Assembly: GCA_963630805.1 (NCBI GenBank)
Contig: CAVGNZ010000051.1
Coordinates: 43,255 to 107,254 of the forward strand
Source: Bacteroidaceae bacterium
Lineage (GTDB): Bacteria; Actinomycetota; Coriobacteriia; Coriobacteriales; Coriobacteriaceae
DNA length: 64,000 nt
Reading direction: 5' to 3'
Shown here: positions 8,386 to 48,946 of the stretch, piece after piece
How the letters are laid out: each line of letters begins with the position of its first letter
Numbering within the stretch: the first letter of the stretch is position 1
Program-made: the position numbers and the translations under genes
The notes under the pieces: model-generated
Told to the model about the DNA's origin: nothing
Seen by the model: the letters and a program-made list of their open reading frames with translations, nothing else
Database searches by the model: none

Positions 8386-9951
8386 CTATGACATATCAAA
8401 CGGCAGCCGATGCTGCATGCGCAGGATGCAGAAGGTGATCTGGATATTCGTTATGGTCTGCGCGTCGTGCAGATCGCAGTCCATGATCTCGCGTATGCGC
8501 TCCAGGCGGTAGTACAGCGTGTTCTTGTGGATAAACAGCAGCGCTGCCACCTCGGCGGGTTTGTTTGGGCGGAGAAGGTGCTCGTAGAGCGTGCGTGTGA
8601 GATTCGAGCCCTCCTGCTCGTCATGGTCCAGCAGACGCATGACCGGAGGAAAGCAGCTCAGTTCGAGCACGTCGCCATCGCTTACGTTGAGCAGCAGGTC
8701 AAAGAGGCGCCAACGAGTATACGTCGCGACCTTTTCCGTTGAGCTCAGATGCGCTGCGGCTGCCAGCGCGTGCTTTGCCTGCGTGAGGTGCATGGGCGTT
8801 GAGTGCGGATCGATAAACACCTCGCTCATGCCCATGCGCGCGCTTGTCCCCTTGAGTACCTGCGCGATCGCCGCCTTGTCGCATGGGGCCTCATCGTGCG
8901 GCTCGTCGGCAGAGGCGAGATAGGTCACGCCCGTCTGGTTTACCGTGTAGATGCTGTTGGGGATATGAGCGTGTACGCGCTGCGCCAGCAGCTGCAGCTG
9001 TTCGAGCGGCAGGAACTCCTGGGAGACATCGATAAAGAGAATGTGCATGTAGGGGCGCAGACGGTAGCCGAACAGCGAAAAGTTGGCCTTGATCTGTTCA
9101 AGATCGCGCGAAAGCGTGCCCTCCTGCATCTGTTGGAACAGGTGAGCGTAATACAGCGTTTTGTTGAGCAGGAAGGAATCGCTGCGCTGCATCTGGATCG
9201 AGAGGATCTGCGCGATGGCAGGCATCATGTCCATGCGGCTCTTTTTGAGATGGCCTCCCTTGGTGAGAAAACTGATGGAGCCCACGATGGTGTCTTGGCT
9301 GTGGATGAGCGCGAAGTGGTTGGTGTAGACCTGCCCGTCGTCGCCGGTCCAGTCAAAGATAAACAGGTCAAAGGGCTTTTTGGGGTTGATGAGCCCCTTG
9401 GCCTTAAGGAGCGGCCAGGCGTCATCGGGAAGGGTCTTGGAAGCGTTTTCCTGACCATGCGCCACAAAGAAGGGAAAGTTCTCTGAGACGGCCAGAAAGC
9501 CCATGGCATTGTCCATAACCGAGGCCGGGGCGCCGATGATGCGCGCGGCGTCGTTCACCACGTGCTCCAGCGTTGCGCCGCGGTTCACGAGCTCGGTGAG
9601 CTTGAGGATCTCGACCTTGCAGCGCTCCACATGGCGAAACTGCGAGGCAAAGTGCTCGAGTACGAGCATCCATTCCTGGGGCGACTTGACGAGCGCGACG
9701 TAGGTGGGCGAGGGCACCGGCTTGAGCGGCGTATCGATCAACAGGAAGAACGCGCGGCCGCGGCACAGCTCCTCGGGCAGTTTGTTGAACAGGGTCGCCT
9801 GCGCGAAGTAGATGACGCCCGGCTCGTTCAAGGCTTCTGTAGCAGAGGCGCCAAGCACCGACACGCCGTTGAATTCTTGGGCTGCGATATTGTCTTGGAG
9901 CACACTGATTGTGTCAGGGTCCAGTTCTTCGACAAGTTCGCTTAAGAGCAT
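8386..9951 (-). CDS. PucR/CdaR-family transcriptional regulator
   Basis: C-terminal PucR-type HTH: PAEVAALLFIHKNTLYYRLERIREIMDCDL. I chose the ATG at 9951, preceded by AGAGGGAG. The longer track ORF extends into the divergent promoter region. Confidence 0.85.
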   Translation of the reverse strand: MLLSELVEELDPDTISVLQDNIAAQEFNGVSVLGASATEALNEPGVIYFAQATLFNKLPEELCRGRAFFLLIDTPLKPVPSPTYVALVKSPQEWMLVLEHFASQFRHVERCKVEILKLTELVNRGATLEHVVNDAARIIGAPASVMDNAMGFLAVSENFPFFVAHGQENASKTLPDDAWPLLKAKGLINPKKPFDLFIFDWTGDDGQVYTNHFALIHSQDTIVGSISFLTKGGHLKKSRMDMMPAIAQILSIQMQRSDSFLLNKTLYYAHLFQQMQEGTLSRDLEQIKANFSLFGYRLRPYMHILFIDVSQEFLPLEQLQLLAQRVHAHIPNSIYTVNQTGVTYLASADEPHDEAPCDKAAIAQVLKGTSARMGMSEVFIDPHSTPMHLTQAKHALAAAAHLSSTEKVATYTRWRLFDLLLNVSDGDVLELSCFPPVMRLLDHDEQEGSNLTRTLYEHLLRPNKPAEVAALLFIHKNTLYYRLERIREIMDCDLHDAQTITNIQITFCILRMQHRLPFDMS

Positions 9952-10189
9952 GAGCACTCCCTCTTTGAGCTGCGGTTTGATTAGAAGTATACAGGTTACT
10001 GCGCAAAAAGAACGTAAAACACCCCGTATGTTTGACACACCGTTCATGTCCAGATGGCTGCCGTTTGCGCGTAGGTGCACGAGGATGCTTTGTATCGCAG
10101 TCCAATGCGCATGGGGAAGAGCAGCCCGATACTTCAAGCCATGGAACAACCGGGGCGAGGCTCCGGAACAACTCACGAGAGGAGTTTTC

Positions 10190-11995
10190 ATGGCCGAAGA
10201 GGAGTACAAGGGCATCTACAAGAAGATGACCTTTGACGGCGAGGAGTTCGAGGTGCCCTTTGCCAAGGGCAACCCCGGCAAGTCCCGCGAGGAGCTTGAG
10301 GAGATCAAGCGCCGTCTGGCCGAGGATCCCGAGGCCGGCGACGGCGAGATGGTCGCCACCATGGGCTTCTGCGCCAAGTACAACCCGCACACCTACATGA
10401 CCAACATCGACGGCATCATGTGCGAGCGCGACGTGGCCTGCGTTCTGCGCGATGGCACCACCATCTACGCGGACGTCTACCGTCCCGCCAACACCACCCA
10501 GAAGGTGCCCGTCATCTGCGTCTTCGCCCCGTTTGGCAAGAACCCTTCCGAGGGCATGGACTCCTGGCAGCTCATGGGCGTGCCGCCTAAGACCGTCTCC
10601 GAGTACGCCAAGTTCGAGGCGCCCGACCCCGGCTACTGGTGCCACTACGGTTACGCGGTGGCCAACGTCGACCCGCGCGGCGTGGGCAACTCCGAGGGCG
10701 ACGTGTACCTGTGGGGCTCCCAGGACGCCCAGGACGGCTATGACTTCATCGAGTGGATCACCGCTCAGGAGTGGTGCAACGGCCACGCCACGATGATCGG
10801 CAACTCCGGCGTCTGCATGGCCCACTGGCGCATCGCGGCCCAGCGTCCGCCGCACCTGTCCTGCCTTGCCGCCTGGGAGGGTCAGGGTGACCTCTACCGC
10901 GAGTCCTACTTCTGCGGCGGTATCCCCAACCCCGACTACGAGACCCACATCATCCAGGCGCTCGCCGTCAACAACTACATCGAGGACACCCCCAAGATGG
11001 TGGCCGAGAACCCGCTGATGAACGCCTACTACAAGGACAAGATCGTCGACTGGAACAAGATTCGCATCCCGACCTACGTCACCGCCGGCTGGGTGCACCA
11101 TCACCTGCGCGGCGCCTTCGAGGGCTTCCGTCGCATCCGTTCGCCCAAGAAGTGGATGCGCGCCCACCGCGACTTCGAGTGGCCCGACACCTACACCCCG
11201 GCGAACCTCGACGACGTGCGTCGCTTCTTCGACCGCTATTGCAAAGAGATCCACAACGGCTGGGAGATGACCCCGCGTGTGCGCATCGACGTCATGGACG
11301 CCTATGACTACGACTACGCCTCCAAGCGCGCCGAGGACACCTTCCCGCTCAAGCGCACCGAGTACAAGAAGCTCTATCTCGACGCTGCCAACGGCGAGGC
11401 CGGCTTCGAGGAGTACGCCAACGAGGCCGAGGTCGTCTACGACCCCAAGACCGAGACCACCACGTTCACCTACGAGTTCACCGAGGACACCGAGATCACC
11501 GGTTTCATGAAGCTGCACCTGAACGTCGAGTGCCGCGGCTACGACAACATGGACCTGTTCCCCTGGGTCATCAAGCTCGATCACGAGGGCAACTACGTGC
11601 CCATCCGCGTCATGGGTAACCCCTTCCGCGGCGCCTGGGGCTTCCTGCGCTGCAGCCACCGCGACCTCGATCCCAAGTACGCATCCGACTTCCAGCCCGT
11701 GCACAGCCACGAGAAGGAGGAGCGCATGCAGCCCGGCGAGATCGTGCCCGTGGACGTCGAGATGTACCCGCACTCCCGCTTCTGGCACAAGGGCGAGAAG
11801 CTCCAGGTGGTCATCGCCGGCCGCTTTATCAAGACCGAGTGGTTCCATGACAACGACATGAACCACAAGACCGACAACGGCGACGGTATGCACGTCATCC
11901 ACACCGGCGGCGAGCACCAGTCCTATCTGCAGATCCCCGTTGTTCCGCCTAAGTACCAGGTGGGCGACTACATCTGGCGCGGTGACTGCTGCTAG
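10190..11995 (+). CDS. CocE/NonD-family serine hydrolase (X-Pro dipeptidyl-peptidase / alpha-amino-acid ester hydrolase fold)
   Basis: Family strings: YGYAVANVDPRGVGNSEGD, DGYDFIEWITAQEWCNGHATMIGNSGVCMAHW (nucleophile elbow GNSG) and a C-terminal jelly-roll region. ATG at 10190 follows GAGAGGAG. Confidence 0.8.
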   Translation: MAEEEYKGIYKKMTFDGEEFEVPFAKGNPGKSREELEEIKRRLAEDPEAGDGEMVATMGFCAKYNPHTYMTNIDGIMCERDVACVLRDGTTIYADVYRPANTTQKVPVICVFAPFGKNPSEGMDSWQLMGVPPKTVSEYAKFEAPDPGYWCHYGYAVANVDPRGVGNSEGDVYLWGSQDAQDGYDFIEWITAQEWCNGHATMIGNSGVCMAHWRIAAQRPPHLSCLAAWEGQGDLYRESYFCGGIPNPDYETHIIQALAVNNYIEDTPKMVAENPLMNAYYKDKIVDWNKIRIPTYVTAGWVHHHLRGAFEGFRRIRSPKKWMRAHRDFEWPDTYTPANLDDVRRFFDRYCKEIHNGWEMTPRVRIDVMDAYDYDYASKRAEDTFPLKRTEYKKLYLDAANGEAGFEEYANEAEVVYDPKTETTTFTYEFTEDTEITGFMKLHLNVECRGYDNMDLFPWVIKLDHEGNYVPIRVMGNPFRGAWGFLRCSHRDLDPKYASDFQPVHSHEKEERMQPGEIVPVDVEMYPHSRFWHKGEKLQVVIAGRFIKTEWFHDNDMNHKTDNGDGMHVIHTGGEHQSYLQIPVVPPKYQVGDYIWRGDCC

Positions 11996-12091
11996 GCAGG
12001 CACCCGTGCACCCGGGGGCGGACACGCGCCGCTCCCGGCGGGGTCGCTCCACGTGGACCCCGTACCCGCTCGAATCCGAGCGTATCCGCTA

Positions 12092-12133
12092 GGCGGGAGG
12101 TCTCTCCTCTCTCTGCGCCTCCCGCCCTCTTTT
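12092..12133 (+). terminator. Hairpin or attenuator between the hydrolase and MFS genes
   Basis: Stem ggcgggagg / cctcccgcc (12092-12100 and 12118-12126), followed by ctctttt. It overlaps the RBS region of the next gene, so it may be only a partial terminator. Confidence 0.4.
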
Positions 12134-12143
12134 GGGAGTTCAC

Positions 12144-13439
12144 ATGTCTGAACAAAAGAAATTCAACGCCTGGCTGCCCAACTTCGGCGCCAAGGGTTGG
12201 GGCATCACCATTGCCTGCTTTGTCTTCTTCTACTTCTATTCCTTCTGGAACGCGGCCACCAACACGCTGTTCGGCCTGTACACCGATATGTACGGCTGGC
12301 AGCAGACCGACATGTCCTACGTCATCACCGTGGCCGGCTGGATCAGCCTGATCGCCGTGGTGCTGTTCGGCACGCTCGGCCGCAAGATCGGCGCCAAGAT
12401 GGTTTCGGTCATCGGCCTTGCGGGATCTGCCGTGGGCTTTGCGATCCTCGCAATGGCCTCAACGTTCGAGCTGTTCGTGGCCGGTGTCGTGGTGTTCAAC
12501 TTCGCCATGGTCGCCTATGCCACCATCGGCGTGGGCCTGCTCGGTTCCAGCTGGTTCCCGCGCACCAAGGGCGCGTTCATGGGCATCGCCACCATGGGCA
12601 TGACCATCTCCTCCGCCACGCTGAACCCCATCATCTTGGGTTTTGCGGGCAGCGCCATGGGCGTCTCTGGGTTCTTCTGGGCCATGGCCGCCATCGTCGC
12701 CGTGACCGCCGTCGCGGTGTTCCTCTTCGTGAAGAACAACCCCGAGGAGGCAGGCGCCTATCCCGATAACGATCAGTCCGTTTCCCGCGAGGAGCTCGAG
12801 GCAGAGTTCCATGCCGCCATGGAGTACAAGAAGACGAGCCCGTGGACCACGGCGCGCGTCCTCAAGACTCCGCAGACCTGGCTTATCGGCCTGGGTACCG
12901 GCCTGCCCATGATGGTCGGCGCCGGCACCATCGCGCTGCTCGTCCCCACGCTGGCCGCCTACGGCCAGGACCCGATGTTCGGCGTCGTGCTGCTTTCTTC
13001 CATGTGGCCGATCGGCCTGCTTGGGCACTATCTCATCGGCGTGCTCGACCAAAAGCTCGGCACCAAGAAGACCACGCTCATCGTTATCTGCGTGCTCGGT
13101 CTGGGCGGCCTGCTCGTCAAGCTCGGCGGCACCAGCTCCGTGGTCTGCGCCGTCGCGACCGGCATGTTCATGTTCGGCCTGTCCGGCGCCGCGAACGTCT
13201 GCATGTCGCTTACGGCCTCTATCTACGGCCGCGCCGACTTCGACGTAGCCTACACGCCCATCCAGGTCATCTTCAACGTCCTGAACTTTGCCGGCGTCTC
13301 CGTCATGTCCACCGTCTCTGCAACCTTTGGCCCCGCCAACGTGATGCTCGCCGTGTTCATCATCTGCGTGGTGGCACTGGTGCCCGTGATCGCGCTGCCC
13401 TATAAGCAGATCGCGTCCAACATCAACGGGCAGAACTAG
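12144..13439 (+). CDS. MFS transporter
   Basis: About 12 predicted hydrophobic helices, with a central hydrophilic loop around NNPEEAGAYPDNDQSVSREELEAEF. ATG at 12144 follows GGGAG. Confidence 0.85.
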   Translation: MSEQKKFNAWLPNFGAKGWGITIACFVFFYFYSFWNAATNTLFGLYTDMYGWQQTDMSYVITVAGWISLIAVVLFGTLGRKIGAKMVSVIGLAGSAVGFAILAMASTFELFVAGVVVFNFAMVAYATIGVGLLGSSWFPRTKGAFMGIATMGMTISSATLNPIILGFAGSAMGVSGFFWAMAAIVAVTAVAVFLFVKNNPEEAGAYPDNDQSVSREELEAEFHAAMEYKKTSPWTTARVLKTPQTWLIGLGTGLPMMVGAGTIALLVPTLAAYGQDPMFGVVLLSSMWPIGLLGHYLIGVLDQKLGTKKTTLIVICVLGLGGLLVKLGGTSSVVCAVATGMFMFGLSGAANVCMSLTASIYGRADFDVAYTPIQVIFNVLNFAGVSVMSTVSATFGPANVMLAVFIICVVALVPVIALPYKQIASNINGQN

Positions 13440-13553
13440 CCGTCCAGCAGCTGCGCACCCATTGAGCCGGAGCGTCGCAGCCGCCAGACAGACCTTCTGT
13501 AACGTAGCCGAGCGAGCGCCCGGCAGCAACCAACCGATCGAAAGGATCACATC

Positions 13554-13805
13554 ATGAACGAATTCCAGGAAGAAGTAGTCGAGATCCTGAAGGACAAGGC
13601 CGTCGACATCTTTGGCGTCGACCGCGACAGCCTTTCTGCCGACACCCGTTTTGCCGAGGACCTGCACTGCAAGTCCGTGAACATCGTCCAGTTCGCCTCT
13701 GCACTCGAGGACGAGTACGAGGTCGAGGTGCCCTTCATGGAGCTTAACAAGAAGGCCACCTTCGCCGAGGCCGCCCAGTTCGTGGACGACGTCCTCTCTA
13801 TGTAG
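13554..13805 (+). CDS. Stand-alone acyl-carrier-protein-like protein (phosphopantetheine attachment site predicted at Ser41)
   Basis: 83 aa. FAEDLHCKSVNIVQFASALEDEYEVEVPF aligns by eye with the E. coli AcpP segment [29 protein letters not shown]. The Ser codon is at 13674-13676. RBS AAAGGA. Confidence 0.72.
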   Translation: MNEFQEEVVEILKDKAVDIFGVDRDSLSADTRFAEDLHCKSVNIVQFASALEDEYEVEVPFMELNKKATFAEAAQFVDDVLSM

Positions 13806-13877
13806 CAACCGCCGCGGGCCCGTGCGCGCCAGACGCCGCGGGCCCGCTTTCACTTCGCAGAAGAAAGGATCCAACCG

Positions 13878-14876
13878 ATGGCAACGCTCATCGAAAAGCT
13901 TATCGCCGACGCCAAGGGCACGCCCAAGCGCGTGGCGCTTCCCGAGTGCGAGGCGGCAAACACCCTGCTCGCCGCCCGCCGCGTGGCCGACGAGGGCATC
14001 GGCACCCCGGTTCTCGTGAGCCCGCGCGACGTGATCGAGGCCACGGCCAAGGAGGCCGGCGTCTCGCTCGAGGGCATGGAGATCGTCGACAGCACCGACG
14101 AGGCCGCGGCCGACGCGCTTGCCGAGCGCTACATGGCCTGCGGCACCCCGCGCCTGATCTCTGCCAAGGGTGCGCGCCGCAAGATCAAGAACCCCATGTA
14201 CTTCGCCATGATGATGGAGGAGCTGGGCGACGTTGACTGCACGTTCTGCGGCCATACCAACACCACCGGCGACGTGCTCATGTGCGCACAGACCATCATC
14301 GGCCTGGCCGAGGGCGTCGACGTGCCGAGCATCTTCGCGCTCGTGGAGACCGAGGGCTTCGAGGGCCCTGAGGGCAACGTCATCGCCTTTACCGACTGCG
14401 GTCTGAACCCCGAGCCCACCGCCGAGGAGCTGGCCTCCATCGCCATCTCCGCCGCCGACAACGTGCGCTCCATCATGGCTTGGGAGCCCCGCGTGGCGTT
14501 CCTCTCGTTCTCCACGGACGGCTCGGGCGCCGGCGTCTCCGTCGATCGCGTGAAGCAGGCCATCGAGCTTGTGCACGAGCGCCGCGCCGACCTGGCCGTC
14601 GACGGTGAGTTTCAGCTCGATACTGCCATCGACCCCAAGGTCGCCGCCAAGAAGGTCAAGCGCGAAAGCGACGTCGCCGGACGCGCCAACGTGCTGGTGT
14701 TCCCCGATCTCAACGCCGCGAACATCGCCGTCAAGCTTATCCAGTGCTTCGCTCACGGCGCGGCCTACGGCCATAACCTCTCGGGCTTCAAGTGCCCCGT
14801 GGCCGACTCGAGCCGCGGCGCCACGGTGGACGAGATCGTGGGCGACATCGCGATGCTCGTGCTCTCCGCGCGCTAG
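13878..14876 (+). CDS. PTA_PTB-family phosphotransacylase (phosphate acetyl/butyryl-transferase-like)
   Basis: 332 aa, short-form Pta architecture. C-terminal signature [22 protein letters not shown] resembles the Pta motif FPDLEAGNIGYK. Confidence 0.85.
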   Translation: [332 protein letters not shown]

Positions 14877-14885
14877 GCCCCGCAT

Positions 14886-15326
14886 ATGACTAAGTGGTCT
14901 TTGGAGGTCGTGCTGTGCGACCTGGTGCTCGCGCTCGTGATCAACACGTCGGCTATGCTCATCTCGGGTGCGGCCATCACGTTCCAGACCTGGTACCCGG
15001 GCGTGGCGAGCGCGTTTTTCACCAATGCGCTGCTGCAGCTCGTGCTGCCGGTGCCGGCCTGGGGGCAGCTACTGAGCCGCCCGCTTGCCGCCTCGCGCAT
15101 CCGCCCCGTTCTCTCGGTCTTTGTGGAGAACCTCGTCTTTGTGACCTGCATCTCCTTCACCATGGCGTGCATCCAGGCGCCGAGTGCGGCCCAGATCGTG
15201 CCCACGTGGCTTGCCACCTATGTCTACCTGGTGGGAATCGGCTACGTCACCTCGCTTGTCCTGTTTGCCGCCACGCACGGCGGTCACCTTCTGCTCGCAC
15301 CCGCGGCGGGCGCTATCGATTACTAA
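14886..15326 (+). CDS. Small integral membrane protein of unknown function (about 4 hydrophobic segments)
   Basis: It sits tightly between the phosphotransacylase stop (14876) and the kinase start (15348). Hydrophobic stretches include LVLALVINTSAMLISGAAI and VYLVGIGYVTSLVLFAA. I could not assign a family with confidence. Confidence 0.55.
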   Translation: MTKWSLEVVLCDLVLALVINTSAMLISGAAITFQTWYPGVASAFFTNALLQLVLPVPAWGQLLSRPLAASRIRPVLSVFVENLVFVTCISFTMACIQAPSAAQIVPTWLATYVYLVGIGYVTSLVLFAATHGGHLLLAPAAGAIDY

Positions 15327-15347
15327 CTGCTTTTGAAGGGATATCCC

Positions 15348-16472
15348 ATGGCATACAAGATCTTGACCCTCTCTCCGGGTTCTACCTCCACCAAGGTGGC
15401 CGTGTTCGATGGCACCGAGGCACTCTTCCGTCTGAACGTCACGCACCCGGCAGACGAGCTTGCCAGCTTTGACCAGGCGGCCGACCAGTTCGAGTACCGC
15501 AAGAAGACCATCCTCGCGGCCCTTGATGAGCAGGGTCTGAAGCTTGAGGACATCGATGCGTTCTCCGGCTACTGCGGCTCCATGGGCCCCACCGTGGGCG
15601 GCATCTTCGCTATCGACGACACCGTCTGCGAGCACGTGCTCAACGCCGGCGTGAACCACCCCGCTATTCTGGGCGCTCCGCTGCTGCACGCCTTTGCGCA
15701 GCAGACCGGTAAGCCCGCCTTTGCCGTGAACCAGCCCGACACCGACGAGCTCGAGGACGTGGCGCGCATCACCGGTTGGCCCGGCGTGTACCGCAAGAGC
15801 CATGTGCACTGCCTGAACCAGAAGGAGTGCGCGATTCGCTGCGCCGCAGAGCAGGGCAAGACCTACGAGACCGGCAACTATATCGTTGCGCATGTGGGCG
15901 GCGGCCTTTCCGTGGCCTGCCACAACCATGGCCGCATGATCGACACCAACGATGTGCTCGAGGGCGCAGGCCCCTTCGCCCCCAACCGCTGCGGCGACGT
16001 GCCCGCCAAGCCGGTGGTCAAGATGGCGTTTGCCGAGGGCGCGGACCAGAAGACCATGAACGCCGTAATCGGTAAGACCGGCGGCCTGGTGGGCCTGTGC
16101 GGTACCGACGACGCGCGCATCATCTGCGAGCGTATCGAGAACGGCGACGAGTGGGCGCGCGTGGTCTACGACGCCATGGCCTACCAGGTGGCTAAGTACA
16201 TCGCGGGCTTTGCCGCGGTGCTTAAGGGCCAAGTGGACGGCATCGTGCTTACCGGTGGCGTCTCGCACGACCCGCACTTTGTCTCCTATGTCTCCGAGCG
16301 CGTCGAGTGGATCGCGCCCGTGCACGTCTACGCCGGCGACTTCGAGATGGACGCTCTCGCTTCCGGCGCCATCCGCGCGCTCGACGGCGAGGAGGCCGTG
16401 ATGACCTACACCGGCGAGCCCTCCTGGAAGGGCTTCACGATGCCCGGCGCCTTTGCCGACGTGATGGCGTAA
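15348..16472 (+). CDS. buk: Butyrate-kinase-family acyl kinase (ASKHA fold)
   Basis: KILTLSPGSTSTKVAVFDG (phosphate-1 motif), IVAHVGGGLSVACH, GGLVGLCGTDD and LTGGVSHD. ATG at 15348 follows GAAGGGA. Confidence 0.9.
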   Translation: MAYKILTLSPGSTSTKVAVFDGTEALFRLNVTHPADELASFDQAADQFEYRKKTILAALDEQGLKLEDIDAFSGYCGSMGPTVGGIFAIDDTVCEHVLNAGVNHPAILGAPLLHAFAQQTGKPAFAVNQPDTDELEDVARITGWPGVYRKSHVHCLNQKECAIRCAAEQGKTYETGNYIVAHVGGGLSVACHNHGRMIDTNDVLEGAGPFAPNRCGDVPAKPVVKMAFAEGADQKTMNAVIGKTGGLVGLCGTDDARIICERIENGDEWARVVYDAMAYQVAKYIAGFAAVLKGQVDGIVLTGGVSHDPHFVSYVSERVEWIAPVHVYAGDFEMDALASGAIRALDGEEAVMTYTGEPSWKGFTMPGAFADVMA

Positions 16473-16487
16473 GTTGGGCTGCCGATC

Positions 16488-17423
16488 ATGAGTTTTACCG
16501 ATACCGCTCTTCAGATGGTGGTGCTCGCCATCCCCATCCTCATCGGCTACATCGCCCACAAGCTCGGCTTTATGGGTGGCGACTTTGACTCGGGTGTCTC
16601 CAAACTCGTTGTCAACGTCACCCTGCCGTGCATGATCGTGGCCTCCATCTGCGGTCGCGACCTGCCCGATGCCGGCGTGCTCGTGCGGCTGCTCGCGTTC
16701 TCATTCGTGGGCTATGTCATCGCTACCGCCATTGCGCTCGTGGTGCCGCGCCTGATGGGAACCGACCGGGCCCTGCGCGGCGCGTACAGCTTTATCGTTG
16801 CGTACGGCAACGTGGGGCTTATCGGCTTCCCCGTGCTCTCCGCAGTGCTGGGCAGCGAGGCCGTCCTTTACGCCGCCATCGCGAACATCCCCTGGAACAT
16901 CTTTGTGTTCAGCGTGGGCATGATCTTGATCTCCGGCGTGCCCGAGGGCGGTATCGGCACGGTGGCGAAGAGCTGCGGCAAGCAGCTGCTCTCGCCGGTG
17001 CTCATCGCGAGCGTGCTGGTCTTGGTGCTGGTCCTGCTTGGCGTGAACGACCTGGGTGTGCTCGGCAGCGGCCTTTCCACCTGCGGCGCGTTCACCACAC
17101 CCGCGGCGCTTTTGCTCTCCGGGTCTTCGCTGGCCAACTATTCGGCACGCGAGATGGTCAACAACTGGCGCGCCTACGTGGCCGTGGCCTTTCGCCTGGT
17201 GGGCGTGCCCTTGGTGCTGCTGCTCGTGATGCGCCTGTTCGTGAACGACCCGTTTACGCTTGCCATCATCGTACTGGGGCAGGCCATGCCCGTGGCCACC
17301 AACGGCATCCTTTACTGCCTTTTGTACGGCGTTGACGCCAAGCCCATGACGCAGGGCACCTTCATCTCGATCGTGGCCTCGATCCTTACCATCCCGCTCA
17401 TGGCCATGCTCGTGATGGCCTAA
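16488..17423 (+). CDS. AEC-family (auxin efflux carrier-like) transporter
   Basis: 311 aa with about 10 TM segments. The N-terminus MVVLAIPILIGYIAHKLGFM...SKLVVNVTLPCMIV is typical of AEC/malate-permease-type proteins. Confidence 0.8.
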   Translation: MSFTDTALQMVVLAIPILIGYIAHKLGFMGGDFDSGVSKLVVNVTLPCMIVASICGRDLPDAGVLVRLLAFSFVGYVIATAIALVVPRLMGTDRALRGAYSFIVAYGNVGLIGFPVLSAVLGSEAVLYAAIANIPWNIFVFSVGMILISGVPEGGIGTVAKSCGKQLLSPVLIASVLVLVLVLLGVNDLGVLGSGLSTCGAFTTPAALLLSGSSLANYSAREMVNNWRAYVAVAFRLVGVPLVLLLVMRLFVNDPFTLAIIVLGQAMPVATNGILYCLLYGVDAKPMTQGTFISIVASILTIPLMAMLVMA

Positions 17424-37278: not shown

Positions 37279-37368
37279 GTCGGAGTGGCGGAATTGGCAG
37301 ACGCGCTAGCTTGAGGTGCTAGTGATCACTTTTCGATCATGCGGGTTCAAGTCCCGCCTCCGACACCA
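37279..37368 (+). tRNA. tRNA-Leu (anticodon GAG), long variable arm, CCA encoded
   Basis: Acceptor gtcggag / ctccgac, anticodon loop ttGAGgt, T-arm gcggg-ttcaagt-cccgc. Confidence 0.93.
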
Positions 37369-37455
37369 TCGCATTTACGAGCCTCCTAGTGAGGCTTTTC
37401 TTTTACCCATTGGACCTGTTTCGGCCGATGGGACGTCGCTAGGCGGGGTGTCGAC

Positions 37456-39792: not shown

Positions 39793-39821
39793 CCCGTGTG
39801 CCGCGGGGGAACCATAGGGGC

Positions 39822-40547: not shown

Positions 40548-40580
40548 CGCTTGTGTAGGGGCGGGCAAAAAACAATCAGG

Positions 40581-42169: not shown

Positions 42170-42264
42170 GTTTACCCCTCTTATCCGCTTATCGATGCGT
42201 GCCGCAATGCGCTCAGCGCGCCCCATACAATAGCGTGTGTGTGGAACTGTCGATGGGGGACGAT

Positions 42265-42882
42265 ATGGCGGAGTTCAAAGAAGAGGGCGCCCCGGCGAGC
42301 GTGCTCGATCGTATCGAGGACGCCGTGTTCGAGCTGATGAAGACCAAGCCGATCCCCGCTATCAAGACCGTTGAGGTCATTCGCCTGGCACGCACCTCCA
42401 AGTCGACCTTCTACCGCTATTTCAAAAGCGTCGACGATGTGGTCAAGCGTTTTGAGGACAAGCTGCTCCACAACATGCAGGGCATCAACGACGTCGCCCT
42501 CGAGGCACGCTTTGCCGACTCGCAGCTCGATCCCACGCCCACGATGATTCGTCGCATGGAGGTCCTGCGCCAGAACCGCGAGAAGGTCTTGGCGCTCAAC
42601 AGCCCTAACGGGGACCCGACCTTTTCGCACAAGGCCACGGTTTTCATGCACGACTACTTCCGTGACCGCTTGCGCGGCACGTTCTCGGACGAGACGAACT
42701 TCGACCTGTATCTCGCCTTCGCCCTGGCCGGGCACAATAACCTGATTCAGTACTGGCTTGAGGTCCGGCCCGATATCGAGCCGCGTATCCTTGCCGCGGC
42801 CCTTAACCGCCTGTTCTTCTCTCCTCTGTTTGTGGACGAGACGGCGCGCCACTGGCATCCGCATATTCCCGATTTCGAATAG
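42265..42882 (+). CDS. TetR/AcrR-family transcriptional regulator
   Basis: N-terminal HTH IKTVEVIRLARTSKSTFYRYFKSVDDVV. ATG at 42265 follows GGGGGA (alternative ATG at 42253). Confidence 0.8.
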   Translation: MAEFKEEGAPASVLDRIEDAVFELMKTKPIPAIKTVEVIRLARTSKSTFYRYFKSVDDVVKRFEDKLLHNMQGINDVALEARFADSQLDPTPTMIRRMEVLRQNREKVLALNSPNGDPTFSHKATVFMHDYFRDRLRGTFSDETNFDLYLAFALAGHNNLIQYWLEVRPDIEPRILAAALNRLFFSPLFVDETARHWHPHIPDFE

Positions 42883-43208
42883 GTTTCCAAACCCGCGTTT
42901 TGAGGCGGGCGGTTCCGTTTGCAAGGTGAACGGTGTTCGACATTGCCGCAAACGGAGGGTTTTTGCATAAAACAAGCCTCTGAGATACAGCGTTTTACCT
43001 GTGGATTGGAACGAAATCATAAAAACAGTCCCAATCGGTGGGACTCTAAACGCAAAAGCGTCCCACGGGGGCGTTTGCGCGTTTCTTAAACTGAAGTCAC
43101 GTTCAGAAGAACCACTGCAGTAGTTCAACGTATGGCAGCAATAAAAAAGCCGAGAGCGCTCTTCCACCTTCGCTCCCGGCCGCCTTTGCGCTGCCATTCC
43201 GCAAACCT

Positions 43209-43227
43209 TCACATGATTAGGATGTGA
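43209..43227. promoter_or_regulatory. Palindrome TCACAT-N7-ATGTGA upstream of the thiolase-like gene (candidate TetR operator)
   Basis: tcacatgattaggatgtga, 28 nt upstream of the ATG at 43255, at the end of an AT-rich 370-bp intergenic region. Confidence 0.3.
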
Positions 43228-43254
43228 TCATCAGTGGTTACGCTCGGAAAGAAC

Positions 43255-44520
43255 ATGCGCAGCGTCTCGATTGTAGGCGTTGGCTGCACCCCGTTCAAGG
43301 ATTTTGAGGAGCACCCTGAGACCCAGGGCATCGGCGAAGGCGAGGCCTTTGGCTACGCGGCCCTTGAGGCCATCGCGGACGCCGGCCTTGAGCCGCGCGA
43401 CGTCGATTTCTACTATCACGGCTCCGCTAACCCTTACCTCATCAACGACTGCATCACCCCGAATATGCAGGTTGCCGACTGGTTCGGCATGCGCGCCAAG
43501 GCTTCGGTGCACCACTCCGAGGCATGCTGCACGGGCTATGTGGCGCTTGAGCAGGCCGTGATGGCCGTTGCTTCCGGCACGTACGACACGGTGCTCTCCG
43601 GCGCCGTCGACCTTGCCGCCACGCTGCCGGTCGAGCACATGCCCTCCCATATTCGCCAGGACTTCCCGCTTTCCGTCATGCTGCCGTCGCTCGACAAGAT
43701 TTACGACCGCGCGTACGGTCGCCCGCTCGACGGCGCCTTTGGCATCAGCTTCGACAACTGGATCAACGAGTACTCCATGCAGTACGACCTTTCTGTCGAC
43801 CAGATCGACGACGCGCTGAACGGCCTCACCAAGAGCCTGCGCCGCGGCGCCGTGCTGAATCCGCTCGGCTGGTACGAGACCACGATCGAGGAGGACGCCA
43901 AGGCGGCCGGCTTCGATTCTGCCGACGAGTTCCTCAAGAGCATGTACAACCCCCGCGTGACCCAGTACCTGCGCGTCACCGGTTTCGAGAAGAAGTGCGA
44001 CGGCGCCGCCGCCATGGTCGTCATGGCGACCGACAAGGCGCGTGCCCTGGGCCTGCCGCACACCCCGATCGAGGTGCTCGGCACGGGTGCCTCCGCCGTC
44101 GAGGCCGGCCTTGTGCACAACGAGCACTGGGGCACGAGCATCGCGGCCAAGCAGGTCTATGAGCTCACCGGTGTCAGCCCCGACGAGATCGACCTCTTTA
44201 TGTGCAACGACTTCTTCCTGGCGTCCGAGATCGTTTCGGCCGAGGAGTGCGGCTACATCCCGCGCGGCGAGGCCTGGAAGTACGCCATCGAGGGACGTAC
44301 CGCGTTCGATGGCGACAAGCCCATCAACCCGCACGGCGGCCGCTGCAACTTCGGCCATGCCCACGGCGCTTCGGGTATCGCCGATATCGTCGAGGCCGTC
44401 AAGCAGATGCGCGGCGAGGCCGGTGCCACCCAGCTGAAGAAGGTTCCCGAGACCACCTTCCTGCGCGGCTTCGGCGGAAGCCAGAACGTGCGCTGCCAGA
44501 TCCTGCGCACCCTTGCGTAA
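43255..44520 (+). CDS. Thiolase-like protein (SCP-x/DUF35-associated thiolase type)
   Basis: VSIVGVGCTPF, nucleophile context HHSEACCTGYVALEQA and C-terminal NPHGGRCNFGHAHGASG. Confidence 0.85.
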   Translation: MRSVSIVGVGCTPFKDFEEHPETQGIGEGEAFGYAALEAIADAGLEPRDVDFYYHGSANPYLINDCITPNMQVADWFGMRAKASVHHSEACCTGYVALEQAVMAVASGTYDTVLSGAVDLAATLPVEHMPSHIRQDFPLSVMLPSLDKIYDRAYGRPLDGAFGISFDNWINEYSMQYDLSVDQIDDALNGLTKSLRRGAVLNPLGWYETTIEEDAKAAGFDSADEFLKSMYNPRVTQYLRVTGFEKKCDGAAAMVVMATDKARALGLPHTPIEVLGTGASAVEAGLVHNEHWGTSIAAKQVYELTGVSPDEIDLFMCNDFFLASEIVSAEECGYIPRGEAWKYAIEGRTAFDGDKPINPHGGRCNFGHAHGASGIADIVEAVKQMRGEAGATQLKKVPETTFLRGFGGSQNVRCQILRTLA

Positions 44521-44552
44521 CACCACGAACTCGACTTTGAAGGAGTAATCTC

Positions 44553-44972
44553 ATGCAACTCAAGGATATGGAGCCCGTGGTCAAGAAGTTCTACGCGGGT
44601 CTTGAAGAAGGCATCTACTGGGGCCGCAAGTGCCCGGAGTGCGGAACCGTGGAGTTCCCGCCGCACCTGGCCTGCAACGCCTGTGGCTACCACGCAACCG
44701 AGTGGGTCAAGGTTTCCGGTCACGGTCACCTGCTCGACTTCACCATCCCTGGTCCCCAGAACGACAAGCCCTATCTCAAGGAGCACGGCAAGTACGGCTA
44801 CGGCTCCGTCGAGATCGACGAGGGCGCACAGTACACCTACGTGGTCTACGGCGTCTCCAAGAAGAACGCCCCCGAGATCCGCGCCAAGCTCATGGCGGGC
44901 GAGACCGTCGGCGTCCATGCCAAGGTCATCGATAGGCCGGGGTATAAAGAGCTCACCTTCGAGCTCGACTAG
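44553..44972 (+). CDS. DUF35-family Zn-ribbon/OB-fold protein (thiolase partner)
   Basis: Rubredoxin-like CPECGTVEFPPHLACNACG followed by an OB-fold region. RBS GAAGGAG. Confidence 0.85.
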   Translation: MQLKDMEPVVKKFYAGLEEGIYWGRKCPECGTVEFPPHLACNACGYHATEWVKVSGHGHLLDFTIPGPQNDKPYLKEHGKYGYGSVEIDEGAQYTYVVYGVSKKNAPEIRAKLMAGETVGVHAKVIDRPGYKELTFELD

Positions 44973-45257
44973 CGGCGGCTTTCCCAAGCACCGCATCTTG
45001 GCGCTCAAGCCGTCGCTTGCGCACCTTCGTACGCGGCGCTCCTCTTTCGCACCAACCTGCGGCACTTGGAAAACCCGCGGGGTGACGGAACGTTCGGGCT
45101 TCGGGCTTATCGCTCAAGAGTCTCGAGAGCCTGCGGGCGATGCCACCTCAAATCGTTTTCGATCAACCGATCCTCTTTCTGCTGCGGCGGGCTTTGTCTC
45201 CTGCCCGCCGCGGCCTCATCTCTCTTACCTATTTGAACAACCAGAAAGGAACCAACC

Positions 45258-45494
45258 ATGTCTAACGAAGAGCTCTCTGCGCAGATCTGCGAGTTCGCCA
45301 AGTCCGCTTACGGCTACGAGGGCGAGGTCACGCCCGAGACCACCTTTGAGACTCTCGGCAAGGGCTCGATGAAGATGATCGCGCTCACCTCCATGATCGA
45401 GAACGAGCTCGACGCCGAGGTGCCCGTGCGCGAGGTCATGGTCATGAAGACCGTGAGCGAGCTCATCGAGCGCGCCGCCGAAGAGCTGGAGTAA
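45258..45494 (+). CDS. Stand-alone acyl-carrier-protein-like protein (predicted attachment Ser37)
   Basis: 78 aa. TFETLGKGSMKMIALTSMIENELDAEVPV aligns by eye with the AcpP segment [29 protein letters not shown]. The Ser codon is at 45366-45368. RBS GAAAGGA. Confidence 0.68.
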   Translation: MSNEELSAQICEFAKSAYGYEGEVTPETTFETLGKGSMKMIALTSMIENELDAEVPVREVMVMKTVSELIERAAEELE

Positions 45495-45498
45495 GGCC

Positions 45499-46506
45499 AT
45501 GGACCTCATGCAGACCCTGCGCGAGCGCGCTGCCGCCTCGCCGGTGCGCGTGGCGTTTCCCGAGGGCGATAACGAGACCATGATGCAGGCGGTGGCCAAG
45601 CTCACCGCTGAGGGCCTGGCCAAGTGCGTGTTGGTGGGCGAGGGCGCCCAGCTGCACGATCTGGCTGCCGAGCGCGGCATCTCGCTCGAGGGCGTCGAGA
45701 TCGTCGACGTTGCCGACGAAGAGGCCAACGCCGCCTGCTGCGAGCGCTACCTGGCGCATCCCGACTGCCAGTTCAAGCCCAAGGGCGCTGCGCGCCGCAT
45801 GACCCGCCCGCTCGAGCGTTCGCTCATCATGCAGGTGCTGGGCGACGTGGACGTCACCTTCGCCGGTATCGATTACGCCACGGGCGACATCATCCTGGCC
45901 GGCCAGACGATCGTCGGCCTGGCCGACGGCGTGGACACCATCAGCTCGGTGGGCATCGCCGACGTTCCCGGTTGGGACGGCGGCGAGGGCGGTCTGATCG
46001 GCTTTGGCGATTCTGCCGTGTGCGTCGACCCCACAAGCGAGGAGCTCGCCTCTATCGCCATCAGCGGTTGCGAGACCGTCGCGGCCCTGACCGGCTGGGA
46101 CGTGCGCTGTGCCATGCTCTCGCACTCCACCGACGGCTCTATGGACAACGCGCTTGTCGACAAGGTGCGCGCTGCCCGTGACATCGCGAACGAACGCCGC
46201 CCGGACCTCAAGATCGACGGTGAGTTCCAGTTCGACTCCGCCATCAACCCTAAGGTCGCGGCCAAGAAGGTCCACCGCGAGTCCGAGGTCGCCGGTCGCG
46301 CCAACCTGCTTATCTGGCCCGATATCAACGTGGGCAACATCGGCGTCAAGATCATCCAGAACCTCACGGGCGCCAACGCCTACGGCCCCATGATCCAGGG
46401 CTTCAAGAAGATCGTTTGCGACTGCTCGCGCTCCGCGCCTGTCGACGAGATCGTCGGCAACGTGGTCATGAGCTGCGTGCGCGCTCAGGCGCTGAAGGAG
46501 GCTTAA
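45499..46506 (+). CDS. PTA_PTB-family phosphotransacylase (paralog of 13878-14876)
   Basis: [47 protein letters not shown] here, against [47 protein letters not shown] in locus A. It starts 4 nt after the carrier-protein stop. Confidence 0.85.
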   Translation: [335 protein letters not shown]

Positions 46507-46510
46507 AGGC

Positions 46511-47659
46511 ATGTCTACTGAGAGGAAACCCTGGCGCGTACTCGTTATCAACCCCGGCTCGACCTCTACCAAGGTGGGCCTCTTTGAGGGCGAGACCGCC
46601 GTATTCCAGAAGAACGTGGCACACGACGCGAGCGATCTTGCCAAGTTCGCCGGCGTCTCCGCGCAGATGCCGTACCGCTGCAAGCTGATTTTGGAGGCGC
46701 TCGACGAGGCGAACGTGGAGCTTGCCGACATCGATGCCTTTGTGGGGCGCGGCGGCGGCCTGATCGCCATGCCCGGCGGCACCTATACGATCGGCGAGAA
46801 GCTGCTTGAGGATGCGACCGCGGGCGCGAACGGCGTCCAGCACCCGGCGCAGCTTGGTCCCCAGATCGCCCACGAGTTTGCCTCCCGCTTTGGCAAGCCC
46901 GCCTTTGTGGTGAACCCGCCCGACACCGACGAACTGTGCGACCTTGCGCGCATGACCGGTATCGACGGCGTGTACCGCACCGTGCACCTGCATGCCCTGA
47001 ACCTCAAGGAGACGGCCATCCGCCATGCGGCCTCGATGGGACGCGCCTACAACGAGTGCAACTTCATCGTCTGCCATATCGGCGGCGGTATCTCCATCTC
47101 CGCGCACGAGCACGGCAAGATGGTCGACGGCAACGACATCGTCGGCGGCGAGGGCCCCATGGCGCCCACGCGCTGCGGTTCGGTGCCCGCCATCGAGGTC
47201 GCCAAGTACACGGCCGAGAACGGCCTGCGCGCCGCCCGCTCGCTGTGCATGAAGACCGGCGGCTTTGTGGACCTGCTCGGCACCTCGGACGCCATCGAGG
47301 TCTGCGAGCGCGCCGCTGCCGGCGACACCCGTGCCGCCCGCACCTGGGACGCCATGGTCTACCAGATCTGCAAGTGGATCGGCGAGATGTCCTGCGTGCT
47401 CAAGGGGCATGTCGACGGCATCCTGCTCGGTGGCGGCATGGTTCACAACAAGGACCTCGTGGCCGCGATCGAGGCGTCCTGCGGATGGATTGCGCCCGTT
47501 ACGGCGTACCCCGGAGAGTTCGAGCTCGAGGCCATGGCGGCAGGCGCCACCCGCGTGCTCGATGGCACCGAGGAGCCCCTTGTCTACACCGGCGAGCCGG
47601 TGTTCGCGGGCTTCGACGACGCCTCGCCGACCGACTCCGGCGCCGCCAGGGCCGCCTAG
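46511..47659 (+). CDS. buk: Butyrate-kinase-family acyl kinase (paralog of 15348-16472)
   Basis: VLVINPGSTSTKVGLFEG, IVCHIGGGISISAH and GKPAFVVNPPDTDELCDLARMTGIDGVYR, against GKPAFAVNQPDTDELEDVARITGWPGVYR in locus A. Confidence 0.9.
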   Translation: MSTERKPWRVLVINPGSTSTKVGLFEGETAVFQKNVAHDASDLAKFAGVSAQMPYRCKLILEALDEANVELADIDAFVGRGGGLIAMPGGTYTIGEKLLEDATAGANGVQHPAQLGPQIAHEFASRFGKPAFVVNPPDTDELCDLARMTGIDGVYRTVHLHALNLKETAIRHAASMGRAYNECNFIVCHIGGGISISAHEHGKMVDGNDIVGGEGPMAPTRCGSVPAIEVAKYTAENGLRAARSLCMKTGGFVDLLGTSDAIEVCERAAAGDTRAARTWDAMVYQICKWIGEMSCVLKGHVDGILLGGGMVHNKDLVAAIEASCGWIAPVTAYPGEFELEAMAAGATRVLDGTEEPLVYTGEPVFAGFDDASPTDSGAARAA

Positions 47660-47746
47660 CTTTCACCCTCTCTCAGGGCGGCGTGACGGGCTGCCTCCAC
47701 ATGGCCCCGCCGCGCCGCACGCTCGGATTAGAAACGAGAAACCACC

Positions 47747-48946
47747 ATGGATAAAACCAAGATCAAGTACCTGGTCGGCATTTACGCCGCCGCCATGTGC
47801 ATCATGGGCATGCTCGTGCCCGTGCCCATCGTCGCCTCCGTCGCGGCCGCCTTCCCGGGCGAGAACATCGCCGCCGTGCAGATGATCATCGGCATCATCC
47901 CGCTCATGATGGCCATCTCCGCCATGCTCGTGTCCTCGCAGCTCGCGAGCCGTGTCTCCAAGAAGACGACGACCCTTGTGGGACATGTCATCGTCATGCT
48001 CGCCGGTGCCTCGGTGCTGCTGTTCCACAGCGCCCTGTGGCAGGTGCTCGCCGCCTCGGCCATCATGGGCCTGGGCCTCGGCGCCGTGCAGAACTCCACC
48101 GATGCCCTTATCGCCGACTACTTTGGCGGCAAGCAGCGCTCCTTTGTCATGGGCATCTACTCCACGTTCGTCGCGCTCGGCGGCATCATCTGGACGATGG
48201 TCTCGGGCATCCTCGGTGCCGACGCCTGGTTCCACTCCTATGCGGCCTACTTCATCATGGTGATCTTCATCATCATCGAGGCCATCTGCCTGCCCGAGGG
48301 CCATCTGGAGCCCAAGCGCCACGTGAACGTGTTCTCCAACATGCCCAAAGAGGTCAAGATCATCACCCTCATGAGCTTCATCTTTGTGCTGTGCTTCCAG
48401 CTCTTCAGCTCCAACGTGTCGCTCATCGTGGTCGGCCGCGGCTTTGGCGGCACGGTCGAGTCCGGTCTTGCCTCCACGGTCATGACCATCGCCGGCATCG
48501 CCGCCGGCCTGCTGGTGGGACCGCTGTTCGCCAAGTTCAAGAACCTCTCTATGCCCATCGCCTGGGCGGTAACCCTTGTCGGCCTGGGCGTCGCCCTTGT
48601 GGCCCCGTCGTTTGCGATGCTCTGCATCGGAGGCTTCGTCATCTCGCTCGGTAAGGAGACCTACGTGCCGCTCGAGGGTAACTTCGCGGCCGGTAACTCC
48701 GCACCCGAGGGCCGTGCCTTCAACCTGGCTATCGGCATGGCGGGCATCAACTTTGGCATGGCGCTCTCGCCGCTCGTGTTCGAGGCCGTGACCAGCCCGT
48801 TCGGTGCCACGATCGACCAGAAGTTCATCGCCGGCATGATCGTGTGCCTGGCCTGCGTGATCTTTGGCGCCGTCAAGTACCGCAAGCTCACCCCGGCTCA
48901 GATCGCCGAGGCCGAGAAGATGGCCGCCGAGGGCGAGGCGGAGTAG
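47747..48946 (+). CDS. MFS transporter
   Basis: 399 aa with about 12 hydrophobic helices. It is on the same strand and directly follows the kinase gene. Confidence 0.85.
   Translation: MDKTKIKYLVGIYAAAMCIMGMLVPVPIVASVAAAFPGENIAAVQMIIGIIPLMMAISAMLVSSQLASRVSKKTTTLVGHVIVMLAGASVLLFHSALWQVLAASAIMGLGLGAVQNSTDALIADYFGGKQRSFVMGIYSTFVALGGIIWTMVSGILGADAWFHSYAAYFIMVIFIIIEAICLPEGHLEPKRHVNVFSNMPKEVKIITLMSFIFVLCFQLFSSNVSLIVVGRGFGGTVESGLASTVMTIAGIAAGLLVGPLFAKFKNLSMPIAWAVTLVGLGVALVAPSFAMLCIGGFVISLGKETYVPLEGNFAAGNSAPEGRAFNLAIGMAGINFGMALSPLVFEAVTSPFGATIDQKFIAGMIVCLACVIFGAVKYRKLTPAQIAEAEKMAAEGEAE

Follow-up and report, generated by a model that had tools for sequence, protein, structure and literature searches.

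Locus A (positions 8386-17423) lies in a 64,000-nucleotide stretch of coriobacterial DNA (contig CAVGNZ010000051.1; this whole stretch, of ~63% G+C, is called the window below) and consists of one minus-strand gene (open reading frame (ORF) 8386-10215) followed, in divergent orientation, by seven plus-strand genes (10190-17423) in the order cocE, mfs, acp, pta, a gene for a 146-amino-acid (aa) membrane protein, buk and AEC. Genes were located by ORF listing and codon-position G+C, and families were assigned by Pfam/NCBIfam profile searches. The minus-strand gene encodes a PucR-family transcriptional regulator (8386..9951; PF13556 HTH_30, E 2e-14; GGDEF_2). The plus-strand genes encode a CocE/NonD-family serine α/β-hydrolase (CocE-A, 10190..11995; TIGR00976, PF02129 and PF08530), an MFS transporter of the monocarboxylate/oxalate-formate type (12132..13439; PF07690, E 7e-26), an 83-aa acyl carrier protein (ACP-A, 13554..13805; PF00550, E 9e-8), a Pta-like phosphotransacylase (PTA-A, 13878..14876; PF01515, E 4e-89), the membrane protein with four predicted long helices (14886..15326; no Pfam/NCBIfam family), a butyrate-kinase-family acyl kinase (Buk-A, 15333..16472; TIGR02707) and an accessory AEC-family (auxin efflux carrier/Mem_trans) transporter (16488..17423; PF03547, E 6e-29). 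An earlier, sequence-only reading of this DNA had described a PucR regulator divergent from seven same-strand genes; its coordinates and every family that it named are confirmed.

The seven same-strand genes are separated by gaps of 6-136 nt, and cocE, acp and pta each have a good ribosome-binding site (AAAGGA or GAGAGGAG) upstream. The acp gene stands directly upstream of pta, as had been claimed; the ACP-pta-buk trio itself is not strictly contiguous, the membrane protein gene being placed between pta and buk. For mfs and buk the probable start positions are 12144 and 15348, respectively, in line with the gene calls of near-identical contigs. The pucR ORF is overextended by 88 codons to 10215; the likely initiation codon is the ATG at 9951, preceded by the ribosome-binding site AAGAGGGAG, which yields a protein of 522 aa, matching the 519-529 aa of its homologues. 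With this start pucR and cocE are free of overlap and stand on either side of a divergent intergenic region of 238 bp (9952..10189, read from the sequence), presumed to hold the promoters and the operator of pucR and the operon. A weak sigma-70-like site on the minus strand (9917-9889) is not above chance. The promoter/terminator scan gave two promoter-like and seven terminator-like sites, all within the expectation from shuffled sequence, and is silent on co-transcription. Near Locus A, scans for Rfam families and tRNAs revealed neither a riboswitch nor another RNA element.

All ORFs of Locus A are accounted for and none encodes an acyl-coenzyme A (CoA) synthetase, a CoA-transferase, a ketosynthase or an acyltransferase. 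Neither Locus A nor the annotated rest of the window carries butyryl-CoA-forming genes (thl, hbd, crt, bcd/etf) or another acyl-CoA source. That the locus lacks these enzymes, and also a 4'-phosphopantetheinyl transferase (PPTase), had been stated from the sequence alone, and the statement holds with every ORF assigned and with a PPTase-negative tblastn search.

To follow the conservation of the gene set, an alignment of the ACP family was used to scan GTDB species, each represented by a single genome; this returned 80 loci, whose flanks were surveyed in a tblastn census. Sixty loci have an ACP at least 45% identical to ACP-A, and in these partners were counted up to 10 kb from the ACP gene. 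A pta gene is found at 58/60 loci, cocE at 55/60 and buk at 52/60, followed by a gene for an AcpS-type PPTase (36/60), mfs (34/60), pucR (27/60; divergent from cocE in 27/60), abhydrolase_3 (25/60) and the AEC carrier (8/60); a small membrane protein is encoded between pta and buk in 24/60. Where partners are absent, this is mostly at contig ends. The gene orders vary (cocE-mfs-acp-pta-buk; acp-cocE-pta; buk-acp-cocE; pta-buk divergent from pucR-acpS-mfs-cocE-acp): Eggerthella sp. YY7918 has acpS-pucR / cocE-mfs-acp-pta-abhydrolase_3-(143-aa membrane protein)-buk, and a JGI contig has abhydrolase-buk-pta divergent from pucR-acpS-mfs-cocE-acp. The clusters as a whole encode PucR or TetR regulators, a number of MFS carriers, additional hydrolases (Abhydrolase_3, MBL) and OYE/FMN reductases, and are free of biosynthetic genes.

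The 60 loci span Coriobacteriia, Firmicutes and one alphaproteobacterial metagenome-assembled genome (MAG). They belong mainly to Coriobacteriia (Olsenella, Collinsella, Slackia, Eggerthellaceae, Atopobiaceae), the others being Dielma fastidiosa and other Erysipelotrichaceae, an Oscillospiraceae MAG, Lachnospiraceae, Brotonthovivens, a Bauldia MAG and sediment Actinomycetota. Several 'cleanbin' MAG records with this Coriobacteriia-type locus (within L019-L069) bear the names of unrelated taxa (Bacteroidaceae, Prevotella, Akkermansia, Alloprevotella and others); these titles probably result from mis-binning or mislabelling and are no sign of taxonomic breadth. The 20 loci with ACPs at 30-44% identity served as a negative control and are almost all devoid of pta, cocE and buk partners; the three annotated ones among the distant loci (30-39% identity) are FabH-AcpP-FabK-FabD-FabG-FabF operons of type II fatty-acid synthesis (FASII). 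No fab, ketosynthase, acyltransferase, or FASII or polyketide synthase (PKS) reductase gene stands beside the ACP in Locus A or in the 60 related loci. Judged from these gene neighbourhoods, the linkage is far beyond chance, and chance adjacency is rejected by the synteny census and the FASII control. The comparative evidence shows the ACP, the CocE/NonD enzyme, the Pta-like enzyme and the Buk-family kinase to constitute a single conserved functional unit. The sequence-only reading had asked whether an ACP-pta-buk-cocE neighbourhood is conserved, and across phyla and gene orders it is.

A locus of Brotonthovivens ammoniilytica (L075, 8127-20108) departs from this pattern in having no cocE: its order is pucR-acp-buk-mfs-FMN_red-OYE/FadH-like-NADH:Fe-S oxidoreductase-MFS, followed by acpS and pta. 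This gene content suggests that the ACP-Pta-Buk unit can serve reductases too.

ACP-A is, by its fold and its invariant serine, a genuine type II ACP. The AlphaFold2 model (pLDDT 93) places Ser41 at the N-terminal end of helix 2 in a bundle of four helices, and Foldseek comparison gives TM-scores of 0.7-0.84 to the type II ACPs of E. coli, T. thermophilus and mycobacteria. Lys40 and Ser41 are invariant across 15 diverse homologues, the motif being K-S-V/T as against the canonical D-S-L, and Ser41 is the predicted phosphopantetheine site. The exact ACP-A sequence recurs in several MAG and metagenome contigs with identical gene order, and members of the family are found in Olsenella uli DSM 7084 (86% identity), Eggerthella sp. 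YY7918 (81%) and Collinsella sp. zg1085 (78%). Beyond the frequency of AcpS-type genes in the census, two arrangements tie a PPTase to the unit. The Oscillospiraceae MAG locus (L072, 1204-5755, minus strand) contains a cocE-acpS-pta-mfs operon, in which the end of acpS and the beginning of pta share 4 nt, with the ACP and a second buk divergent from it across a pucR gene, and an ACPS and a PTA_PTB domain are naturally fused in a representative protein of 492 aa (P0257) that has 45% identity to PTA-A. A dedicated PPTase is shown by this comparative evidence and would serve the ACP-Pta-Buk-CocE unit.

PTA-A is nearest to Pta and far from Ptb (75 bits). It scores 264.2 bits against TIGR00651 (Pta), short of the equivalog cutoff of 311.2, and 263.7 bits against the PRK09653 subfamily model, under its cutoff of 310. 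PTA-A and its paralogue PTA-B (see below) were aligned to five solved Ptas, and residues are given in M. thermophila numbering. The catalytic Ser309/Arg310 pair is kept in PTA-A, PTA-B and essentially all of 70 ACP-linked homologues from related loci (one has K for R). The two proteins differ from the solved Ptas at Arg87 (Gly/Pro), Arg133 (Met/Leu) and Tyr282 (Val), and Lys90 is deleted or changed; arginine occurs at position 87 or 133 in none (0/70) of the ACP-linked homologues. Holo-ACP bears phosphopantetheine only and has neither the 3'-phosphate nor the diphosphate groups of CoA. In the P. gingivalis Pta-acetyl-CoA structure the equivalents of Arg87 and Arg133 are Arg89, which together with Lys92 binds the 3'-phosphate of CoA, and Arg135, which binds the β-phosphate; in the M. 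thermophila enzyme Arg87 and Arg133 act mainly on Km (PMC6461089). A search of 1.84 billion representative proteins found the canonical R-K-R-Y-S-R-D signature confined to more distant matches, and in a neighbour-joining tree PTA-A and PTA-B fall in a clade of 15 representative clusters that is Arg-free at both sites and includes no solved structure. The sequence-only reading had remarked that PlsX, which phosphorolyses acyl-ACP, is placed in one superfamily with Pta and Ptb; for PTA-A this kinship was not shown by profile search, in which neither PTA-A nor PTA-B matches PF02504 (PlsX) even at E ≤ 10, only PF01515 being found (one distant Pta has a weak PF02504 match, E 4e-4). We propose that PTA-A works like PlsX without being PlsX.

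CocE-A scores 187.3 bits against TIGR00976, above the cutoff of 66.3, and has both the S15 (PF02129) and the PepX_C (PF08530) domains. Its closest structural homolog is SACOL2612 of S. aureus (PDB codes: 3IB3/3III; E 1e-93), while cocaine esterase (CocE) matches it at E 1e-11 over the N-terminal α/β part only. Ser206, within a G-N-S-G motif, and His326 are near-invariant in 55 homologues of CocE-A, and Ser206 aligns with the nucleophile of CocE. Buk-A passes the TIGR02707 cutoff of 289.1 with 373.5 bits and is matched by Buk2 of T. maritima (PDB code: 1SAZ; E 2e-92). The MFS carrier, of 431 aa in near-identical contigs, is weakly matched by the bile-salt, lactate and OFA models of MFS proteins. 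The 146-aa membrane protein matches no Pfam/NCBIfam family at E ≤ 10. Its AlphaFold2 model (pLDDT 86.5) has no significant Foldseek match in the PDB (best E 1.5), and its 107 homologues carry few source names; these ('hypothetical protein', 'ABC transporter ATPase') either say nothing about function or are probably spurious. The protein is specific to the ACP-cocE-pta-buk type of cluster.

A second, paralogous ACP-Pta-Buk module (Locus B, 42199..48946, plus strand), missed by the single-locus picture of the sequence-only reading, was found in the window by tblastn with the Locus A proteins. Pfam assigns to it a TetR regulator (42199-42882), an SCP-x-type thiolase (Thiolase_C_1, 43234-44520), a DUF35/zf-ChsH2 protein (44553-44972), a 78-aa PP-binding ACP (ACP-B, 45258-45494) and an MFS carrier (47747-48946); ACP-B is followed by PTA-B (45499-46506, 46% identical to PTA-A) and Buk-B (46511-47659, 49% identical to Buk-A), all on the plus strand. 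ACP-A and ACP-B share 28% identity only, and the ACP-B family has an invariant G36-S37 (G-S-M motif). The thiolase keeps its nucleophilic Cys, and its nearest structures are the archaeal ACAT (of the thiolase/HMGCS/DUF35 complex), BbsB and PhlC. The same TetR-thiolase-DUF35-ACP-PTA-Buk order, with a gene for an Sfp-like PPTase upstream, recurs in Collinsella tanakaei as well as in dozens of contigs from gut metagenomes. No acyl-CoA-forming enzyme is conserved with modules of either the Locus A or the Locus B type.

Collinsella phocaeensis, Dielma fastidiosa and many metagenome contigs carry a cocE-type module next to a thiolase-type one. Such side-by-side 'super-clusters' (L165-L176, L146, L154, L029, L070, L071) have two ACPs, two PTAs and two Buks, and are frequently accompanied by ~320-aa FMN_red proteins, MBL-fold or α/β hydrolases and FadH/OYE-type flavoenzymes, as well as by DUF1097 or SpoVAC-like small membrane proteins and extra MFS carriers. 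Their composition hints at one multi-step catabolic pathway. As to the chemistry of Locus B itself, its thiolase/DUF35 front end points to C-C cleavage, and this fits the relative PhlABC, which reportedly moves acyl groups without CoA from donors of the β-triketone type (PMC6392133).

We favour, at slightly better than even probability, a reading of Locus A as a CoA-independent acyl-transfer and phosphorylation module around its own ACP (acyl-S-ACP ⇌ acyl-phosphate ⇌ ATP). The module is most likely catabolic, because the regulators are of the inducible type, uptake carriers are many, the accessory genes encode hydrolases and reductases, biosynthetic genes are lacking and the hosts are fermenters. 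In the proposed route the MFS carrier would take up the substrate, and Ser206 of the CocE/NonD enzyme would attack it to give an acyl-enzyme, from which the acyl group would move to the phosphopantetheine thiol of holo-ACP rather than to water. The Pta-like enzyme would then phosphorolyse acyl-S-ACP to acyl-phosphate, and the Buk-family kinase would pass the phosphate to ADP, yielding ATP and a free short-chain acid, which would leave the cell through the AEC or the MFS transporter, or perhaps through the small membrane protein. The PucR regulator would turn the operon on in the presence of the substrate. Locus B may follow the same route, with the thiolase/DUF35 pair capturing the acyl group. 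The acyl transfers themselves we infer; their chemistry would be that of PlsX and Buk, carried out by an enzyme of the Pta family.

Group-transfer potentials are about -32 to -36 kJ/mol for thioesters and near -20 for ordinary O-esters, and those of amides are lower still. As a thioester has to be formed, the donor must be energy-rich, and an ordinary ester or amide would be insufficient. Candidate donors are an activated ester or lactone (of the aryl, enol or 1-O-acyl type) and a β-dicarbonyl cleaved by a retro-Claisen reaction; the conversion of acetoacetate and water to two acetate yields about -48 kJ/mol (calculated from standard formation energies). The sequence-only reading had made a carrier-protein thiol, and not CoA, the partner of the Pta-like enzyme and the kinase, with the CocE/NonD enzyme feeding it: this part withstood all the computational tests that the reading had proposed and is backed by synteny, the PPTase link and the arginine loss, while its 'ester or amide' donor is too broad on energetic grounds. 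Substrates suggested by the accessory reductases and hydrolases were considered (flavonoid/phloroglucinol products, lactones such as dihydrocoumarin, 1-O-acyl sugars, β-keto acids and bile acids), and none of them is specifically supported. A bolder version, to which we give somewhat less than an even chance, is that the CocE/NonD enzyme or the thiolase/DUF35 pair captures acyl groups from non-activated substrates on a dedicated ACP at a gain of one ATP per cleavage, and that ACP-Pta-Buk is an exchangeable and widespread 'energy-harvesting cassette', which gut Coriobacteriia and Firmicutes would couple to various front-end enzymes.

Several observations weigh against the ACP-based reading. The transfer of an acyl group from an ordinary O-ester or amide to a thiol is uphill, which narrows the substrate range sharply. 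The structure nearest to CocE-A, 3IB3, is of a protein without known function, and the position equivalent to Asp259 of CocE is not Asp in the CocE-A subfamily or in 3IB3, so that the acid of the triad could not be placed by alignment. A tblastn search of the 64-kb window with four PPTases from related loci found none. As for the phosphotransacylase, Arg133 is also absent in 59/130 Pta-like representatives outside the clade of PTA-A and PTA-B, Arg87 is absent in E. coli EutD, a CoA user, and arginine mutants of the P. gingivalis Pta lost activity only moderately (PMC6461089). Because of the 59/130 outsiders and of EutD, the loss of Arg87/Arg133 was rejected as a strict diagnostic; judged from the alignments, it is supportive of ACP as the thiol partner.

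The same proteins could work in the opposite direction. Buk would spend ATP on phosphorylating a short-chain acid taken up from outside, the Pta-like enzyme would load the acyl group on holo-ACP, and the CocE/NonD enzyme would acylate an alcohol or amine, the product being exported by the MFS or AEC carrier. In Locus B the last step would be a Claisen or Friedel-Crafts C-acylation by the thiolase. We consider this reading, a short-chain analogue of FakA/B-PlsX, unlikely. The reactions of Pta and Buk are both reversible, a kinase and a phosphotransacylase feeding ACP are known from the Fak-PlsX system (this route to acyl-ACP was reportedly set out by Parsons in 2014 and Lu in 2006), and the α-amino-acid ester hydrolases among the CocE/NonD proteins catalyse acyl transfer well. 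PhlC, to which the Locus B thiolase is related, belongs to a CoA-independent C-acyltransferase, the ACP gene abuts buk in several Firmicutes, and Locus A has two exporter-like carriers. However, no acceptor-forming or biosynthetic gene is conserved with the cluster, the PucR/TetR regulators, like the accessory hydrolases and reductases, suggest catabolism, and the clusters occur in fermenters with small genomes.

Improbable, and more so than reverse flow, is an energy-neutral activation loop, in which Buk and Pta would load an acid on the ACP, the tethered thioester would be reduced (by a FadH/OYE-type enzyme) or cleaved, and Pta and Buk would regain the ATP. Its counterparts would be the CoA loops of caffeate and bile-acid metabolism. 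It would account for the two buk genes of several related clusters and the two pta genes of some, for the recurrence beside the module of OYE+Pyr_redox_2 (FadH/BaiCD-like) proteins, ~320-aa FMN_red proteins and NADH-Fe-S modules, and for the Brotonthovivens locus, which has ACP, Buk, PTA, AcpS and reductases and no cocE. Locus A, however, has no reductase and a single pta and a single buk gene, and the loop leaves unexplained cocE, which this argument takes as the most constant partner (55/60).

We rejected, as very improbable, an ordinary CoA-dependent Pta-Buk pair of acid fermentation that merely lies beside an unrelated carrier protein and hydrolase. PTA-A and Buk-A do retain their full set of catalytic residues and reach high scores with the Pta and Buk models, and the loss of Arg133 occurs in other Pta-like groups. 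Nevertheless, ACP, cocE and PPTase genes are linked to the pair across phyla and gene orders, an ACPS-PTA fusion exists, the clusters contain no acyl-CoA-forming enzyme, and the module is duplicated with an ACP of its own each time; the synteny census and the FASII control decided the matter. On the same census and control we dismiss as hardly credible the idea that the ACP is the housekeeping FASII ACP, with Buk and Pta supplying short or branched primers as Ptb-Buk does from exogenous acids in Listeria and Staphylococcus: none of the 60 loci has fab neighbours, the FASII ACPs (30-39% identity) lie in separate fab operons, and one genome has two different dedicated ACPs with a KS or GS motif in place of DS.

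Comparison with known systems sets the ACP-based module apart from each of them. A FASII/PKS cluster is ruled out, there being no ketosynthase, acyltransferase or reductase neighbours, and so is a butyrate-fermentation operon, there being no butyryl-CoA genes. In the Pta-AckA and Ptb-Buk pathways acyl-CoA and phosphate give acyl-phosphate and then ATP. The module shares with them the protein families (PF01515; TIGR02707), the catalytic Ser-Arg pair, the adjacency of the genes and fermentative anaerobes as hosts, and differs from them in lacking an acyl-CoA former, in the conservation of a dedicated ACP and a PPTase, in the loss of the CoA-binding arginines and in missing the Pta cutoff. PlsX with FakA/FakB, like the system proposed here, combines a phosphotransacylase acting on acyl-S-ACP with a kinase acting on the acyl-phosphate/acid pair; these proteins are, however, of the PF02504 and DegV/Dak families, whereas PTA-A has no PF02504 match, and they serve long-chain phospholipid synthesis with the FASII ACP and form no inducible operon with an ACP, a hydrolase and transporters of its own.

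By analogy, the nearest conceptual precedent is glycine reductase, whose proteins A and C act with acetate kinase. There a small carrier protein passes a C2 unit to a thiolase-fold/PlsX-like enzyme pair, and an enzyme thioester is converted to acetyl-phosphate and ATP without free CoA, which comes close to Locus B; unlike the present system, glycine reductase has a selenoprotein carrier and reductive chemistry, and its gene set has no homologous counterpart here. Locus B also resembles PhlABC and the archaeal thiolase-HMGCS-DUF35 complexes in pairing an SCP-x-type thiolase with a DUF35 protein, but those have no ACP, Pta or kinase, and Locus B has no KAS III-like PhlA or HMG-CoA synthase partner. 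CocE-A has in common with cocaine esterase, α-amino-acid ester hydrolase and SACOL2612 the S15 α/β domain, the PepX_C jelly-roll and the nucleophilic Ser and His, and we know of no member of the CocE/NonD family that acylates a carrier protein. A full-text literature search returned no description of the ACP-Pta-Buk-CocE gene set, a weak negative, as subscription journals are thinly covered. From the comparison of genomes, the gene set is well supported as a conserved system, while its chemistry is unproven.

Locus A is flanked by a glutamate synthase gene on one side and, on the other, by a DUF559-like gene and then serA/serC-like genes. The protein encoded directly downstream of the operon (17547-18593, 348 aa) has weak C-terminal DUF559/REase_MTES_1575 endonuclease-like matches and is also found in near-identical contigs. 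Further along, the segment 21717-24151 has the lowest G+C (0.55) of the window and a strong AT skew. It contains a 540-aa ORF, probably for a PMT_2/CHIM_prot-type protein, as at the matching place in a related locus (L002), and a 128-aa ORF that is probably a ParE-toxin gene, as in near-identical contigs; this stretch may be a short insertion of foreign origin. A cluster of tRNA genes (37279-42130; Leu-GAG, two Gly-GCC, Cys-GCA and Val-GAC) stands between Locus B and a SpoIIE-type phosphatase/anti-sigma pair.

Textbooks always draw substrate-level phosphorylation through acyl-phosphates with CoA thioesters. If the ACP-based reading is true, these modules would represent a new, carrier-protein-based route of energy conservation for anaerobes, in which a serine hydrolase or a thiolase can save bond energy that is otherwise lost to hydrolysis. 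The Pta-like clade devoid of the CoA-binding arginines could then serve as a sequence marker for ACP-dependent phosphotransacylases. The system is tractable, as it comprises few proteins, soluble save for the transporters and the small membrane protein, and cultured hosts exist (Olsenella uli DSM 7084, Eggerthella sp. YY7918, Collinsella tanakaei and Dielma fastidiosa). The proposed route would also give a function to a gene set present in many Coriobacteriia of the human and animal gut (Olsenella, Collinsella, Slackia, Eggerthellaceae) and in some Firmicutes.

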